A DNA stretch of 32,000 nucleotides, from NCBI RefSeq assembly GCF_008000775.2, contig NZ_CP042905.2, positions 900,001 through 932,000 of the forward strand. The letters are read 5' to 3'. The DNA is from Promethearchaeum syntrophicum (GTDB lineage Archaea; Asgardarchaeota; Lokiarchaeia; Sigyniarchaeales; Promethearchaeaceae). Below are positions 7,745 to 16,943 of this stretch, one piece after another. The position numbers were made by a program, and so were the translations under genes. Within the stretch, counting starts at the first letter, position 1; each line of letters begins with the position of its first letter. The notes beneath the pieces are model-generated. The model saw only the letters and a program-made list of their open reading frames with translations. It did not search any database and had not been told where the DNA came from.

Positions 7745-8422
7745 ATGGTACGCTATCGATCTGATGAAAAATTGTTTCTTCTCCATCCAACACGAAGAAA
7801 TATCTATAAAATTCTTTGTGAAAATCCTGGGACATATTTTTATAAATTGATGAAACAAGGTTCTTCAGGGAGTAGCGCGACATTATTATATCATTTAAAT
7901 AAATTAGAAGATGATGGGTTAATCACATCCGCAAAAATTGATGGAAAAAGAATCTACTTTCCAAAAAATTTACGTACACAAGAAATTGAACGAGCTTATA
8001 TGTTACTTAAAAATAAAAATGCTCTAAAGATCTTTCTGTACATTGTTAATCATAAATCTTGTTTTCAAAATCAAATTGCGCGAGAATTTAGTTTACATCA
8101 CGACACAATAAGACATCATGCAACCCGTTTAGCAGACGCGGAGCTAATTGAAAAGAAAAAGGAAGGTAAACATGTTTTTTTCAGTATAGGTCGTGTTGGT
8201 ATAGAAATATTAGAGGGATCTATTATCTTGTTTTCTGAAGCTTATATTCGATTTATAATTTCAAAATTAGCCGACGATTGTCATTTTCCAGAAATTGTGA
8301 ATCGAACAAGAGATCAACTAACTATTCGCGTTGTATGTCCTGGAGAAGACGATATCATGCTTACTATCGATATTTCCAATTGGGATGCGCAATTTATAGA
8401 AAATCCAAAAGAAGTTTTATAG
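7745..8422 (+). CDS. transcriptional regulator with two ArsR-type winged-helix domains
   Basis: There are two wHTH-like segments: HPTRRNIYKILCENPGTYFYKLMKQ...LLYHLNKLEDDGLITSAKIDGKRIYF and ALKIFLYIVNHKSCFQNQIAREFSLHHDTIRHHATRLADAELIEKKKEGKHVFF. Confidence 0.75.
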   Translation: MVRYRSDEKLFLLHPTRRNIYKILCENPGTYFYKLMKQGSSGSSATLLYHLNKLEDDGLITSAKIDGKRIYFPKNLRTQEIERAYMLLKNKNALKIFLYIVNHKSCFQNQIAREFSLHHDTIRHHATRLADAELIEKKKEGKHVFFSIGRVGIEILEGSIILFSEAYIRFIISKLADDCHFPEIVNRTRDQLTIRVVCPGEDDIMLTIDISNWDAQFIENPKEVL

Positions 8423-11653: not shown

Positions 11654-13060
11654 TCAGAATTTACTGTGGTTTTTTTTTAGTTCTTTCTCGGAAAGAGTTT
11701 TTCGTACTCTTTTCTTTATTTGAGCGGTCATCCAATCATAAGAACCAATTTGTCCGAATTTACTCCAAATTTTTAAAATAAAAAACCATAAAATGACAAT
11801 AATCATACTATAACAAACTACCAATGCCATATTTTGAGCCCAACCAGGAAAAACTTTGTCCAGAATTAGGAGTTTTATTACAGATCCAAAAAAACTTTCC
11901 AATAAATACATAGTAAGTGAGAATTTACCAAAAAGTTGTAGGAAGGTCATCCTTTCTTTCTTCTTTTTCAACTTATAATCTAATTTATTTGTGTTCCTTT
12001 TATCTTTCTTTGAAATTTCAGAATAAACCAACATTGTTACAATTAAAATCATGATTCCTATTTGGAGATGAGTTGTTTGAATTGGTAAAGTTCTTAAAAT
12101 ATGCTCAACTGGCGGTTCTCCGAAGATTATATATCCTATTGTTCCTAAAATAATGTAAATTGATGAGACAATGATTCCAACCAATAAAAAAATATTTTTT
12201 GGAACTTTTCCTTTAATTTCAATTCCAATTGCTACTCCGTACAGAGCAAAACCCAGAAAAGGCATCATTGGATCCGAGTCTCCGACTAAAATACCAACTA
12301 ATATAATTTTCCCGTAATTTTCATCTATTAATGCCTGAACCCAAATAGGTCTTAAAATATCAATTAGGAATGGTGAAATTACTATTATAAATGTCGCTAA
12401 AATTCCCACTATAAGTAGGTTTCTATGAATTCTCTTATAACCTTCATTATGGAATAAAATTACAAGTAAAACACTATAAAACATTAGCGATAAACCCATC
12501 ATTGATAAAGCTCCACTTGAAAAAAAAGTAGGATACAAAGGAAATGGATGAAATACACCAGTTTCTAGATATCCTAATATATAAGAATAATATGTAGGAC
12601 CCGTATCAAAATCATAAATTCCTCCTCCTGTAACTGGCCGATCTAAAAAACGATAAACGACCCTCTCTAAAATTATGAACCATAAACCTACAATGAATGA
12701 TTCCATTATTGTTTTCTTCCCGTTTGTGGTTCCTTTTGAATATCTACTGTAAATACTCATTGAGTTTGATATTCCGGATATAAATACAAATATACCCGCC
12801 ATTCTCGCCATAAATTCGATCACTTTTGCAACTGGATTTTCAGTCAATGCAGATGCAACGCCCAATAGATCCATCTCTAAAAGTTGAAAACCGTGAAAAA
12901 GAACCATACAAAATATTGCAAATCCCCTAAGAGAATCAAGACTTTTCAATCTTCTTGAATGTTTCAATACTTTTTTGTCTATAGAATTTGTAATTATTTG
13001 GTATGTAGATTGTTGAATTATTATCACGATCCATGAAGAAATTATTGGCCATTTTAACAA
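11654..13060 (-). CDS. polytopic membrane protein, DUF1624 / HGSNAT-like acyltransferase family
   Basis: RLKSLDSLRGFAIFCMVLFHG near the N-terminus is the signature I associate with DUF1624/acyltransferase-3-like proteins, and there are about 10 TM segments. The start is uncertain: TTG at 13060 or GTG at 13027. There is no in-frame ATG upstream of the motif. Confidence 0.65.
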   Translation of the reverse strand: MLKWPIISSWIVIIIQQSTYQIITNSIDKKVLKHSRRLKSLDSLRGFAIFCMVLFHGFQLLEMDLLGVASALTENPVAKVIEFMARMAGIFVFISGISNSMSIYSRYSKGTTNGKKTIMESFIVGLWFIILERVVYRFLDRPVTGGGIYDFDTGPTYYSYILGYLETGVFHPFPLYPTFFSSGALSMMGLSLMFYSVLLVILFHNEGYKRIHRNLLIVGILATFIIVISPFLIDILRPIWVQALIDENYGKIILVGILVGDSDPMMPFLGFALYGVAIGIEIKGKVPKNIFLLVGIIVSSIYIILGTIGYIIFGEPPVEHILRTLPIQTTHLQIGIMILIVTMLVYSEISKKDKRNTNKLDYKLKKKKERMTFLQLFGKFSLTMYLLESFFGSVIKLLILDKVFPGWAQNMALVVCYSMIIVILWFFILKIWSKFGQIGSYDWMTAQIKKRVRKTLSEKELKKNHSKF

Positions 13061-13191
13061 TGAGAGCGAAATCTATTTAAGCTAAATATATAGAGTTCCC
13101 GGTAATTCTACATAAAGAATTTGTGAAAAAATCCATTTTGTTGATTTCAAATTTTTTGAATATTCGATAGCACACGAAATTAATGTTTGAG

Positions 13192-13205
13192 ATTTAACGT
13201 TAAAT
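13192..13205. promoter_or_regulatory. palindrome ATTTAACGTTAAAT in the unit 1 spacer (candidate operator)
   Basis: Perfect 14-bp palindrome centred on AACGTT. A related half-degenerate site, ttaatgtt, lies 14 bp upstream (13180-13187). The arrangement is conserved in unit 2. Confidence 0.3.
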
Positions 13206-13276
13206 TTGAAATATCTTATAATTTCGGATCAAAGAAAATTTAGATGTAATTTATGAATAAAATAGAGAATATGACA

Positions 13277-13305
13277 AGCCAGAATTCGATTTCGTGTCGC
13301 TAAAG
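13277..13305 (-). pseudogene. decayed tRNA-Asp 3'-exon fragment (psi-1)
   Basis: agccagaattcgatttcgtgtcgctaaag matches 21/29 positions of the plus-strand tRNA segment gaccggaattcgaatccgagtcgctggag (T-arm to the 3' side of the anticodon stem). The acceptor 3' strand, the intron and the 5' exon are absent. Confidence 0.7.
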
Positions 13306-13417
13306 AAATTCATAATTTAGAAAAGATCGAGATTTGTTAGAGATAAATCCTTTTAAGGTTAACAAAAATATTCCTTTAGAACAAAAATATATATAATATA
13401 CAAAACCATAGTTAAAT

Positions 13418-14038
13418 ATGGTTAGTAAAAAGGATTTTTTTACCTATACCAAAATTATTTTTATATTAACAATATGTTTTGGTCTTATCGGAAACTATAT
13501 CTATGTTGAGAATTTTAAACCTCTTATAAGTAATTACAATTATCATGATGAGCCAATTAATTCTTTGTTTCATAAGCAATACGATGATTTTGTATTAGAA
13601 GGTGGTCATGAATATATTTTCTACTTTTTTTTAGAAGGACCCCATGATGTCTATCTTAATATAAATATGATATTTGAAACCATGGATAATATTACAATCT
13701 CTTATGGTACAGGCGTAAATGAATCCTGGTTGGAGTACTGGGGGGAAGATAGAATTTATACAGAACCATTATATATTCCCCAAAACGAAACAATTTTTAT
13801 TTCGGTACAAATGACAGCTCCCGGCACTAGTTATGGTAGTTCTCATTGGCAAATGCTTGTTTATCAAGATTTACCCATGTGGTTAACCAAACCTATACCC
13901 ATAATTGTTTTCTTTACTATCCTCTTGCTCGTAATTTGGGCGATTGCATATGAAAAATATGAAAAAATCTTTACCGATATTAAAAACCAAAAAAGAAAAT
14001 TAGTAGAAAAAACGGAGGAAGTAAGAAATGTCGAATGA
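13418..14038 (+). CDS. bitopic membrane protein A1 (N-terminal TM anchor, ~120-aa exposed domain with N-x-S/T sequons, C-terminal TM, charged tail)
   Basis: 206-aa ORF and a paralog of 14863..15483. The TM segments are IIFILTICFGLIGNYIYV and PIPIIVFFTILLLVIWAIAY. The sequons NIT, NES and NET are conserved in the paralog. A TATA-like atatatataata lies about 25 nt upstream of the ATG. Confidence 0.75.
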   Translation: MVSKKDFFTYTKIIFILTICFGLIGNYIYVENFKPLISNYNYHDEPINSLFHKQYDDFVLEGGHEYIFYFFLEGPHDVYLNINMIFETMDNITISYGTGVNESWLEYWGEDRIYTEPLYIPQNETIFISVQMTAPGTSYGSSHWQMLVYQDLPMWLTKPIPIIVFFTILLLVIWAIAYEKYEKIFTDIKNQKRKLVEKTEEVRNVE

Positions 14039-14468
14039 AAATAAGGAAGAAAATTTTATATCAATGTCCGGTTCCAGTAAAATAAAGATAAAGCATATGA
14101 TTTCCCACCCAAATTTCTTTTCCGATTTTAGACAAACACCAATGAATTGGTTTTTGATAATTTTAAGTCTATTAATTTTGATCTTCGTAATGATAACTGA
14201 TCATTGGTATTTCATGATAGGAATACCTATTTTTATTGTGCTATTTATTTTTCTAATCATCTCCCAAGGAGAGTGGCAAAGGTTCAAAGTATATTATCCA
14301 ATATTAGATGTGGCTTTCTATGGATTAAACATTGCCGGTTTTATAATTCTATGCTTTTACAATATTTTCTTTTCTCTATCCGTTTTATTTTTGATATTGA
14401 TGTTTAGAATATATCTCGTCAATCGAGAAAAAAGAATAGCAACAGCTATGAAAGGGTTATATCCATGA
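14028..14468 (+). CDS. small four-TM membrane protein B1
   Basis: 146-aa ORF whose ATG overlaps the end of A1 by 11 nt (aaATGtcgaaTGA), which suggests translational coupling. It is a paralog of 15473..15913. Confidence 0.7.
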   Translation: MSNENKEENFISMSGSSKIKIKHMISHPNFFSDFRQTPMNWFLIILSLLILIFVMITDHWYFMIGIPIFIVLFIFLIISQGEWQRFKVYYPILDVAFYGLNIAGFIILCFYNIFFSLSVLFLILMFRIYLVNREKRIATAMKGLYP

Positions 14469-14635
14469 AGAATTTCTTACAGAAATTACTTACCCTTTAA
14501 AGAATGAGAGTAAAATCTATTTATGCTAAATATATAGAGTTTTCAGTAAATCTACATAAAAGATTTAATAAAAATTTTATTTTGTTGATTTCAAATTTCA
14601 TTGAACATTCGATAACACACGAAATTAACGTTTGA

Positions 14636-14651
14636 AATTTAACGTTAAATT
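14636..14651. promoter_or_regulatory. palindrome AATTTAACGTTAAATT in the unit 2 spacer (candidate operator)
   Basis: Perfect 16-bp palindrome. A second TTAACGTT lies at 14625-14632, so the two AACGTT centres are 14 bp apart, the same spacing as in unit 1. Confidence 0.3.
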
Positions 14652-14720
14652 CGAAATGTTTTATAATCACGGATTGTGGAAAATTTAGATGGAATTTATG
14701 AATAAAATAGAGAATATGAC

Positions 14721-14749
14721 AAACCAGATTTCGATTCCGAGTCGCTGGA
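14721..14749 (-). pseudogene. decayed tRNA-Asp 3'-exon fragment (psi-2)
   Basis: cgattccgagtcgctgga matches cgaatccgagtcgctgga of the intact gene at 17/18 positions, and aaccagattt matches gaccggaatt at 7/10. The preceding flank atgaataaaatagagaatatgac resembles atgaaataaaataaagaaaatg, which precedes the real tRNA 3' end. Confidence 0.8.
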
Positions 14750-14862
14750 AAAACCCTTAATTTAGAAAAGGTAGAGATTTTTTAAAGATAAATCCATTTT
14801 AAGGTTAAAAAATAATTACTTCAAACCAAAAACCTAAATTAAATACAAAACCTTAGATATAT

Positions 14863-15483
14863 ATGGTTAGTAAAAAGGATTTTTTTGCTTATGCCAAAAA
14901 CATTTTTATATTAACAATTTGTTTTGGGCTTATAGGAAACTATATCTACGTTGAGAATTTTGAAACCCTTATAAGTAATTATAATTATCATGATGAGCCA
15001 CTGAATTCTTTGTTTCATTGGAATTACAACAATTTCGAATTAGAAGGTGGTCATGAATATAGATTCTTCTTTTTTTTTGAAGGACCGCAAGATGCCTATC
15101 TTCATATAGATATGATATTTGAAACCATGGACAATATAACATTCTCATACAATACAGGTGCAAATGAAACTTGGTTTGGGCAATGGGGGGAAAATACAAT
15201 TTATACAGAACCAATATACATTCCCCAAAATGAAACAATTTCTATTTCGGTAAACATAAATCCGGGCAGCATTAGTTCTAGTACTCTTCATTGGCAAATG
15301 CTGGTTTATCAAGATTTACCTATGTGGTTAACCAAACCCTTACCCATAATTGCTTTCTTTACTATTCTCCTGCTCGTAATTTGGGTGATTGCATATGAAC
15401 ACTATGAAAAAATCTTTACAAATATTAAAAACCAAAAAATAAAATTGATCGAAGAAACGGAGGAAGTTACAAATGTCGTATGA
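14863..15483 (+). CDS. bitopic membrane protein A2 (paralog of A1)
   Basis: Same length (206 aa) and same architecture, with 156/206 identical residues to A1. Confidence 0.75.
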   Translation: MVSKKDFFAYAKNIFILTICFGLIGNYIYVENFETLISNYNYHDEPLNSLFHWNYNNFELEGGHEYRFFFFFEGPQDAYLHIDMIFETMDNITFSYNTGANETWFGQWGENTIYTEPIYIPQNETISISVNINPGSISSSTLHWQMLVYQDLPMWLTKPLPIIAFFTILLLVIWVIAYEHYEKIFTNIKNQKIKLIEETEEVTNVV

Positions 15484-15913
15484 AAATAAGGAAGAAAGTA
15501 CTATATCAATACACGGTACCAGTAAAATTAAGATAAAACATTTGGTTACTCATCCATATTTCTTTTCTGATTTTAGACAAACACCAATAAATTGGGTTTT
15601 GATAATTTTAAGTGTAGTAAGTTTGATCTTTGTATTTAATACTGATCGGTGGTATTTTTTGATAGGAATTCCTATTTTTATTGCACTGTTTATTTTTCTA
15701 ATTCTCTTCCAAGGAGAGTGGCAAAGGTTTAATGTATATTATCCAATATTAGATGTGGTTTTCTATGGATTTATTATAGTCGATTTTATTATTCTATGTT
15801 TTTTTAATATTTTCTTTTCTCTATCCGTTATATTTTTGATACTGAAATTTAAAAATTATCTCGTCGATCGAGAAAACCGAATAGCATCTGCAATGAAAGG
15901 GCTATATTCTTAA
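15473..15913 (+). CDS. small four-TM membrane protein B2 (paralog of B1)
   Basis: 146 aa with 109/146 identical residues to B1 and the same 11-nt overlap with the upstream A gene. Confidence 0.7.
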   Translation: MSYENKEESTISIHGTSKIKIKHLVTHPYFFSDFRQTPINWVLIILSVVSLIFVFNTDRWYFLIGIPIFIALFIFLILFQGEWQRFNVYYPILDVVFYGFIIVDFIILCFFNIFFSLSVIFLILKFKNYLVDRENRIASAMKGLYS

Positions 15914-16041
15914 TTAATTCATAAGGTGACAAGATAGTCTAAAAAATATTGATCTTTTTTTTAATTTATTATAATTTTCTTCTAATTTACGTGATATTTT
16001 AATAAAACAGAGTCATATTAAATGAAATAAAATAAAGAAAA

Positions 16042-16147
16042 TGGCGCCCCGACCGGAATTCGAATCCGAGTCGCTGGAGAGCTGCTGAATACTTGAAAAC
16101 AAGCATACATTGACAGTCCAACATGCTTACCACTACACTATCGGGGC
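16042..16147 (-). tRNA. tRNA-Asp: tRNA-Asp (anticodon GUC) with a 31-nt intron at the canonical 37/38 position and an encoded CCA
   Basis: The reverse complement folds as acceptor GCCCCGA/TCGGGGC, D-arm GTGT-AGTGGTAA-GCAT, anticodon stem TTGGA/TCCAG, loop CTGTCA[intron]C, T-arm TCGGA-TTCGAAT-TCCGG, discriminator G and CCA. The intron (plus-strand 16080-16110) sits in a bulge-helix-bulge: a 3-nt bulge CAA, the 4-bp helix CUGU/GCAG, a 3-nt bulge CUC, and then the intron helix UGUAUGCUUG/CAAGUAUUCA. Confidence 0.93.
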
Positions 16148-16286
16148 TTTTAAGAATATTTGAGTTTACTAAAAAATCTTAATCTAAAAAAGGTAGACCT
16201 AAATTAAAAATTTTTGATACTATACTTTATCAACTACATTCATAATCGAGAATTTTTAAAATTATTCAAGATTACTGAGAGTATTA

Positions 16287-16943
16287 ATGAATAAGGAAAT
16301 ATGCATTATTTGGGATTGGAATGGCACATTAATTGATGATGTACACACCTCACTTGAGTGTATAAATATCATTTTAAAGAAACATCAATTAGCAACAATA
16401 AATCGAGAAAATTATCAACAAATTTTTACGTTTCCAGTTGAGCAGTACTATAGAAAGCTTGGGTTTGATTTTACAAAAATTTCTTTTGCGAAATTAGCGG
16501 ATGAATTTATCCATGAGTATAAAAAAAGAATGTTGGATGCGAAATTATATCCCAATGTGAAAGATGTTTTGGAACACCTGCAACAAATGGGTGTAAAACA
16601 ATTTGTAATTTCAGCTATGGAAATTGGAAAACTCAAGCTATGTATCGAAAATAAAGGTATATCACATTATTTTGAAGACATTTTGGGGTTGAATAATAAT
16701 TATGCTAATGGCAAAATGAGTTTAGTAAAAGAGTTCGCGAGACAAAGAAAGGATTTATTATATTCGAGTAATATTTGGATGATCGGCGATACTGAACATG
16801 ATTTTTACATAGCTAGTGAATTAAAATGGAATTCTATCCTGGTTTCCCAAGGCCATCACAGTTATTCAAGATTGAGTGCTGTTGGTAATATTGTGCTGAG
16901 AAATTTAAATGATATCAAGAAAATCTTTTCAAACATAATATAA
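16287..16943 (+). CDS. HAD-superfamily hydrolase (phosphoglycolate-phosphatase-like subfamily IA)
   Basis: The motif I region is ICIIWDWNGTLIDD. Motif II is VISA (S/T), and motif IV is the region MIGDTEHDFYIA (GDxxxD). The length of 218 aa fits a small cap domain. Confidence 0.8.
   Translation: MNKEICIIWDWNGTLIDDVHTSLECINIILKKHQLATINRENYQQIFTFPVEQYYRKLGFDFTKISFAKLADEFIHEYKKRMLDAKLYPNVKDVLEHLQQMGVKQFVISAMEIGKLKLCIENKGISHYFEDILGLNNNYANGKMSLVKEFARQRKDLLYSSNIWMIGDTEHDFYIASELKWNSILVSQGHHSYSRLSAVGNIVLRNLNDIKKIFSNII

Follow-up and report, generated by a model that had tools for sequence, protein, structure and literature searches.

Decayed copies of a tRNA-Asp 3' exon beside the intact intron-bearing gene of Promethearchaeum syntrophicum and their bearing on tRNA intron turnover

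Caldiarchaeum subterraneum carries a tRNA-Thr(GGU) fragment 1.8 kb from the intact, intron-polymorphic gene, together with a recombinase-bearing insert, and the integration of elements at tRNA genes was proposed as a cause of both intron gain and fragmentation (Sugahara et al. 2012, PMC3293823). The same text records the suggestion that an intron may shield an att site (PMC3293823). In the duplications of att sites of the SSV and pNOB8 type, exemplified by the 44-bp SSV1 core in tRNA-Arg (PMC3293823), a copy of the tRNA 3' half is found at the distal border of the inserted DNA and the intact gene at the proximal border. Split and permuted tRNA genes are known from Nanoarchaeum, Caldivirga and Staphylothermus (Chan, Cozen and Lowe 2011, PMC3218864). 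[quoted passage not shown]

The tRNA-Asp locus of the Asgard archaeon Promethearchaeum syntrophicum most closely recalls the C. subterraneum case. In both, a fragment in direct orientation and the intact gene are 1-2 kb apart and separated by inserted DNA, the number of introns varies among very close genomes, and recombination at the tRNA gene is invoked. However, the C. subterraneum fragment is a 5' piece and its insert encodes a recombinase and resembles a pNOB8-type element, whereas here a 3' piece is fused to the gene's own upstream flank, the insert encodes only two membrane proteins, and the arrangement is old and stably inherited. Compared with the Asgard study (10.64898/2026.10.13.758758), which is a census, this locus adds a dated relic and a pair of contigs of ~99 % identity that differ by one intron.

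The window analysed is a stretch of 32,000 nucleotides of the P. syntrophicum genome (G000; 4.32 Mb in a single contig, 31 % GC, introns in many tRNA genes). Relative genomes are denoted G001-G003, and loci fetched from metagenomic and relative contigs are numbered L0xx. The intact tRNA-Asp(GTC) gene occupies 16042..16147 on the minus strand, as found by Rfam, by ARAGORN with introns allowed and by its hBHBh' structure. It consists, on that strand, of a 3' exon with encoded CCA (16042-16079), a 31-nt BHB intron at position 37/38 (16080-16110) and a 5' exon (16111-16147). The Rfam match (49.6 bits, 16045-16147, minus strand) is to the sole tRNA in the window. With default settings ARAGORN called 0 tRNAs in the window; the run with introns allowed was needed to obtain tRNA-Asp(GTC) at c[16042,16147], in which an intron of 31 nt follows position 37. 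In the cloverleaf and canonical hBHBh' drawn by hand all pairs are standard, with a 4-bp central helix (32-35/63-66), 3-nt bulges CAA and CUC and cuts at 37/38, and the intron contains a 2+7-bp outer helix. This hBHBh' fold lies 5.8 kcal/mol above the minimum free energy fold, which avoids the bulges. The gene is an archaeal tRNA gene with a canonical BHB intron, and the exon and intron limits of the original prediction were reproduced by the cuts of the hand-built structure. ARAGORN with introns and exon BLAST, which found no second gene, put the copy number of tRNA-Asp in the genome at one.

Both flanks of the gene are of importance for what follows. The 3' flank at 16022..16041 (minus strand), the trailer/terminator region, is copied beside both remnants described below (Smith-Waterman), and the upstream flank from -31 to -50, at 16178..16197 (minus strand), is copied in them directly after the 3'-exon copy. 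On the right the syntenic anchor is a gene for a HAD-family hydrolase (16287..16943, plus strand; Pfam HAD_2, 7e-22), and all relatives examined have it linked to tRNA-Asp. The spacer that separates it from tRNA-Asp (16171-16286) shares 89-92 % identity between G000 and L030, L033 and L034, and by eye it is nearly unchanged in G001-G003. It is thus conserved non-coding DNA, while the HAD genes of the same three loci are mostly only ~80 % identical to that of G000 at the nucleotide level. The genome also has an open reading frame for an Arf-like GTPase.

To the left of the tRNA gene lie two tandem units in plus orientation with a repeat spacing of 1445. Unit 1 (13029..14473) starts with a spacer that contains the promoter region of a neighbouring 468-aa gene, AACGTT palindromes and remnant R1, followed by gene A1 (206 aa, 13418-14038, plus strand) and gene B1 (146 aa, 14028-14468, plus strand). 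Unit 2 (14474..15925) has a spacer with remnant R2, followed by A2 (14863-15483) and B2 (15473-15913), both on the plus strand. The two spacers, of ~380 nt each, are 85 % identical, and the products of the A and B genes share 76 and 75 % amino acid identity, respectively (BLAST). Downstream of B2, the stretch 15914-16021 is conserved 3' of B in relatives. The A-B cassette consists of two membrane protein genes, and neither Pfam nor PHROG gave matches for A or B. In one lineage (L036:660-1739, L037 and L038) A and B are fused in a single ORF of 359 aa, which supports the idea that both membrane proteins act jointly. The left syntenic anchor is the gene for the 468-aa membrane protein (11654..13060, minus strand), with weak matches to HGSNAT_cat and DUF418 of Pfam; its synteny holds in G003, L030, L033, L034 and L035.

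Remnant R2 (14698..14775, minus strand) is composed of a copy of the 3' flank (14698-14716), a decayed 3'-exon copy with a 4-nt deletion in the acceptor strand (14717-14750), five ambiguous bases (14751-14755) and a copy of the upstream flank that matches at 18/20 positions (14756-14775). R1 (13253..13330, minus strand) is the tandem copy of R2 and is more decayed; its corresponding parts are at 13253-13271, 13272-13305, 13306-13310 and 13311-13330. In Smith-Waterman alignments the left homology of R2 pairs 16022-16078 with 14698-14749 and stops exactly at 16078, and that of R1 pairs 16022-16075 with 13253-13301. With GC-matched genome windows as null, these matches reach P<1/3000 for R2 and P=0.003 for R1. 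It had been proposed that both remnants match up to 16078. The base for C38 (16079) is kept in R1 and in all relatives that retain the stretch (L030, L033-L035), so that the left homology reaches the edge of the exon itself.

On the right side, local alignment with shuffles paired 14749-14775 of R2 with 16171-16197 (23/27, P about 0.001). R1 taken alone gave 16/20, which is not significant (P=0.44), in the same register as R2. The remnants of relatives, compared with 16148-16286, yielded P<1/2000, and a 16-nt block, 16182-16197, is exactly common to the remnants of L030, L034 and L035. R2 and three independent relatives therefore show the right homology at P about 0.001 or less, with all copies in one register. 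A jump from the exon to 16171 and onward, as first suggested, is certain only from 16178; 16171-16177 is ambiguous. The possibility that the match reflects a generic tRNA promoter motif was rejected, since among the upstream regions of all 45 tRNA genes compared with the remnant that of tRNA-Asp is an outlier, with 34 against at most 24 for the others. When tested against AT-rich background the upstream-flank similarity (16171-16197) proved clearly better and specific to tRNA-Asp. A three-way global MAFFT alignment misplaced the deletion and put the right side of the remnants on the intron; local alignment with shuffles favours the upstream flank. Neither remnant has an Rfam tRNA match, even at E<=10, or a call by ARAGORN. 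The acceptor strand has suffered the 4-nt deletion and several G-to-A changes, and the 5' half is absent. R1 and R2 are tRNA pseudogenes or gene fragments.

The extent of the repeat is informative on its origin. In L034 and L035 the intact 3' flank aligns with the left flank of the remnant for ~50 nt past the tRNA end; in L033 this alignment weakly extends further, and in G000 only 20 nt are alignable. All well-preserved remnants contain a block identical or near-identical to 16178-16197. In L041, where the cassette lies beside a different gene, homology starts exactly after the 16178-16197-like block, which shows that this block belongs to the tRNA locus and not to the cassette. A long direct repeat of the tRNA-Asp locus, with 3' flank, gene and upstream DNA to about -50, thus encloses the cassette, and the left copy of this repeat lacks an internal piece. 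As the repeat spans both tRNA flanks, it points to a duplicated locus with a subsequent internal deletion rather than to an att core.

It is rather probable that R1 and R2 are non-functional relics that go back to one incomplete, internally deleted duplicate of the locus. Part of the tRNA-Asp locus would have been doubled in an ancestor of this Lokiarchaeial genus, so as to form a long direct repeat on either side of A-B; this part included the gene, at least ~50 nt of its 3' flank and the DNA upstream as far as about -50. This may have occurred by segmental duplication or by homologous (Campbell-type) insertion of a circle, either choice being inferred. A deletion that began in the anticodon region and reached about -30 upstream would then have removed an internal segment of the redundant left copy. 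This would have joined the 3' part of the tRNA to the gene's own upstream flank, and the product would have decayed since. In G000 a later tandem duplication of 1,445 bp, of spacer, A and B, made the second relic copy. Because R1 and R2 lie inside this tandem duplication they represent one event, not two, and they share their breakpoint as copies of each other.

The relic is shared with relatives. A and B were not found in the 40 species-representative relatives searched; in a protein search, homologues of A with 62-80 % identity were found in metagenomic contigs. A pattern scan of metagenome contigs yielded one new locus and a scan of genome contigs gave no matches, nor did a search for more remnant-bearing contigs with the N-terminal 180 aa of the 468-aa protein as query. 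L030, L033, L034 and L035 show the 468-aa gene (minus strand), a spacer with the same remnant, A, B and, further on, tRNA-Asp and the HAD gene. The same spacer, with a 17-nt deletion across the junction, is present in L039/L040, so that at least five metagenomic relatives have a relic of identical architecture in the interval from the 468-aa gene to A. In L043 the 468-aa gene adjoins A, the distal spacer and remnant are missing, and A and B are intact. In L029, L036-38 and L041 A-B is found in other contexts. In G001 and G002, both of which are rearranged, the 468-aa gene and tRNA-Asp are on different contigs, and no remnant was found beside the 468-aa orthologue. For both anchor genes G000 is the most divergent (80-84 % nucleotide identity to the others versus 83-93 % among the others), with the exception of the HAD gene of L030 (90 %). 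As the arrangement is common to G000, L030, L033, L034 and L035 and G000 is the most divergent, the relic predates the group or genus. G003 has the 468-aa gene, a spacer, tRNA-Asp and the HAD gene without cassette, and its spacer shows clear homology to the remnant-side spacer over the proximal ~90 nt only. Since G000 is the outgroup, this state is best read as a later, secondary loss. A circular permutation of the cassette, considered on the basis of two 129-aa genes of L029 and L030, was rejected because these genes are unrelated.

The locus of L030 is a mosaic. Its 468-aa gene, spacer, A and B go with those of L034 (90-96 % nucleotide identity), and its HAD gene is 90 % identical to that of G000 and only 83-85 % to the others (16287-16766 and, for the 468-aa gene, 11654-13036 were compared). 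The pattern suggests that lineages have recombined, with a breakpoint close to tRNA-Asp. The DNA directly 3' of tRNA-Asp varies in almost every relative and is a hotspot of insertion and rearrangement with no recognisable recombinase: L030:7409-7977 carries a gene pair encoding a DUF5678 and an aspartyl-protease-like protein, L033:2227-3669 a 480-aa ORF without assignment, and G001 and G002 (L017 and L018) unrelated sequence.

The original prediction held that the locus may preserve a recombination event exactly at the junction of anticodon loop and intron, and pointed to the att cores of archaeal integrative elements. An old rearrangement is indeed real, with an end at or very near the edge of anticodon loop and 3' exon, but its reading as an integration is not supported. 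On that reading the repeats would be attL and attR of an integrase-mediated insertion into the tRNA-Asp 3' half, and A-B the residue of an element that has lost its integrase. This is quite unlikely. A direct copy of the 3' half across inserted DNA, at the distal border with the intact gene proximal, is the classical picture known from SSV1 (PMC3293823); G003 has no cassette between the 468-aa gene and tRNA-Asp; and the DNA just 3' of tRNA-Asp differs in G001, G002, L030 and L033, as expected of a rearrangement hotspot. However, whole or split integrases that overlap the repeats are lacking and the spacers and remnants contain no ORF of at least 50 aa. No integrase or mobile-element gene was found between the repeats in the six remnant-bearing loci that were read across the cassette (G000, L030, L033, L034, L035 and L039), and no cassette has a mobile-element match in PHROG or Pfam. 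The three tyrosine recombinases of the genome (PF00589, Phage_integrase) are encoded at 2.54-2.62 Mb only, ~1.6-1.7 Mb away, and no sequence matching the 3' exon lies near them. Further 3'-exon copies do not occur elsewhere in the genome, and the 3'-exon patterns (n=2) had no match in viral contigs, so that a free or viral form was not found either. The arrangement is, moreover, stably inherited across ~15-20 % nucleotide divergence.

The composition of the repeat also argues against an attachment site. An integrase crossover is expected to leave a short core, followed by element DNA. Here the repeat is not confined to a tRNA core with an unrelated element side, but covers both flanks: the upstream flank (16178-16197) and, in L034 and L035, ~50 nt of 3' flank. 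There is no reason for an attP to carry 20 nt of tRNA upstream flank. With a single event and with relatives that have no intron at this site, an attachment site of a virus or plasmid is not supported.

The intron content of tRNA-Asp varies within the genus. G000, G001 and L033 have a tRNA-Asp intron at 37/38 only, G003 at 37/38 and in the T-arm, G002 and L030 in the T-arm and D-arm with none at 37/38, L034 in the D-arm only, and L035 none (L016:8840-8971, L017 (rc) 833-935, L018:2392-2527, L030:8194-8340, L033:3876-3980, L034:2943-3064, L035:2156-2230). Alleles without the 37/38 intron thus occur in G002, L030, L034 and L035. These are five intron configurations within one genus, in keeping with the repeated gain and loss in Asgard tRNA genes (10.64898/2026.10.13.758758); they include D-arm introns that escape standard finders, and the multi-intron alleles were missed by ARAGORN. 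G000, G001 and G003 share one homologous intron at 37/38, to which that of L033 is unrelated in sequence. L034 and L035 are 98-99.5 % identical in spacer, A and B, yet differ by one 31-nt D-arm intron, and their tRNA-Asp exons and 3' flank are identical to those of G000. Intron turnover in this tRNA is very fast, and the locus is in line with the absence of a general link to mobile elements (10.64898/2026.10.13.758758).

This bears on the position of the breakpoint. The exon copies end in GCTGGA, and the next base corresponds to C38. The bases that follow GCTGGA are G TGATA C... in L033, G TGATA T... in L034 and L035, G TAATA T... in L030, G AAATT C... in R1 and A AAACC C... in R2. The five bases after C38 derive either from the anticodon loop of an intron-less gene (TGACA) or from the flank (AAAAT, 16173-16177). 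The copies of L030, L033, L034 and L035 match the loop at 3-4/5 positions, including a rare G, and the G000 copies match the flank at 3-4/5. From the base frequencies of the spacer, a 4/5 loop match was estimated to arise by chance with a probability of ~0.02. Parsimony gives a tie between both readings when applied to the two clades. The ancestry of the junction was reasoned by hand, from branch length and mutation direction rather than from an outgroup. Each stem lineage changed at only ~4-5 % of the sites where the ancestral state is known (exon and flank). The flank reading requires four changes in five adjacent sites on the stem of L030, L033, L034 and L035, which hit the loop sequence by chance, while the loop reading requires two or three A-ward changes on the G000 stem. 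The G000 copies are also more decayed, with 4-6 versus 2-3 differences in 27 exon positions. The loop reading is preferred on account of the low rate of stem change, the cost of the flank reading and this greater decay, even though AAATT and AAACC of the G000 copies are closer to AAAAT than to the loop.

The true breakpoint was thus probably at 32/33 of an intron-less ancestor, the relic retaining positions 33-76. A breakpoint exactly at the 3' splice site is unlikely by comparison, and one elsewhere would come as a surprise. A relic from an intron-less allele necessarily loses homology to the G000 gene at the intron, and the sharp stop at the intron boundary is, as far as the aligned copies go, most likely an artefact of comparing the relic with an intron-bearing gene. 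The proposed coincidence of the breakpoint with the junction of anticodon loop and intron holds in so far as the end is at or very near the edge of the 3' exon, but the TGATA of L033, L034 and L035, set against TGACA, places the event itself probably at 32/33. The homologous 37/38 intron of G000, G001 and G003 could nevertheless have been present when the relic was formed.

It is improbable that the breakpoint truly is the 3' splice site, with intron-associated or RNA-guided removal of the DNA from roughly the transcription start to the intron end, so that promoter and 3' exon would form the fossil of an attempted gene split. C38 is kept and the next bases of the G000 copies are not clearly derived from the exon. 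The right breakpoint (-24 to -31) is close to one of the three candidate start sites that AT-rich, promoter-like motifs would predict, and rearrangements at the sites of introns are known from other work (PMC3218864; PMC3293823). As in split and permuted tRNA genes (PMC3218864), a lone 3' half is preceded by promoter-like DNA, and its edge coincides with or adjoins the canonical intron position. However, a coincidence within 1 nt has ~3-10 % chance for what was a single event, given that several landmarks would have been noticed. The remnants of relatives carry loop-like bases past the exon edge, and no other part of the spacer is as poorly conserved as the remnant. Unlike a functional split gene the half is degenerate, with the acceptor strand destroyed and no leader able to form a BHB in trans. 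A separate 5' half is found nowhere in the genome, where the 5' exon occurs once, inside the intact gene that supplies tRNA-Asp.

A more far-reaching variant is very doubtful. The deletion endpoints would then be non-accidental, and the relic would record a DNA rearrangement aimed at the 3' splice site of a tRNA gene with an intron, and perhaps at its transcription start as well. If true, this would be a fossil of the birth of split tRNA halves with their own promoters, in an Asgard archaeon. In a related variant the cassette would spread among lineages without integrase and use the duplicated tRNA-Asp unit as a portable homology arm.

It is hardly probable either that the relic has been co-opted, be it as a small RNA or as part of a regulatory spacer that serves the 468-aa gene or the A-B operon. 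The whole spacer (83-87 % nucleotide identity) is about as conserved as the flanking coding DNA (78-84 %), and a block of 20 nt within it, 14697-14716, scores 0.95. The initial impression that the spacer is far better conserved than coding DNA was rejected by this comparison at the nucleotide level. In the six-sequence alignment, however, conservation within the spacer is lowest in the columns derived from the tRNA (0.58-0.73), compared to 0.92-0.97 for neighbouring blocks (promoter block of the 468-aa gene 0.97, AACGTT palindromes 0.92-0.95). L039/L040 have lost the junction and L043 the entire stretch, with A and B intact in these loci. Spacer conservation, to judge from these identities, argues for regulatory content in the spacer and not in the remnant. 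The weakest reading, that AT-rich background noise explains the similarity, draws on the insignificant right side of R1 alone and is refuted by the left homologies of R2 and R1, by the right-side values of R2 and the relatives and by the single register of all copies.

Two blocks of the spacer deserve mention. Immediately 3' of the decayed tRNA copy, a block of 20 nt (14697-14716, and 13252-13271 in unit 1) is homologous to the trailer/terminator region and may still act as a terminator or as regulatory DNA of the spacer. A pair of AACGTT-centred palindromes, 14617-14656 and 13172-13211, is almost invariant across species (mean pairwise identity 0.92-0.95) and is probably bound by a regulator, as a site that lies upstream of either the 468-aa gene or the A-B operon.

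The relic is an ordinary pseudo-tRNA fragment of a known kind, its coincidence with the splice junction is probably trivial, and its modest interest comes mainly from intron turnover. Where tRNA introns turn over fast, homology between a gene and a relic will seem to stop at a splice site for trivial reasons, and such coincidences need comparison with relatives before integration or splitting is claimed. The dated relic and the five tRNA-Asp intron configurations make this a locus at which the rate of intron turnover in Asgard archaea can be approached. The locus also bears on the question whether alleles move between lineages by recombination at tRNA genes. No other tRNA-fragment repeats were found in the genome. 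Partial strong matches to tRNA-Leu, tRNA-Gly and tRNA-Ser exons without an ARAGORN call were found at genome positions ~144712-144834, 75892-76018, 2437069-2437118 and 8335-8356, and these are probably further multi-intron tRNA genes missed by standard finders.
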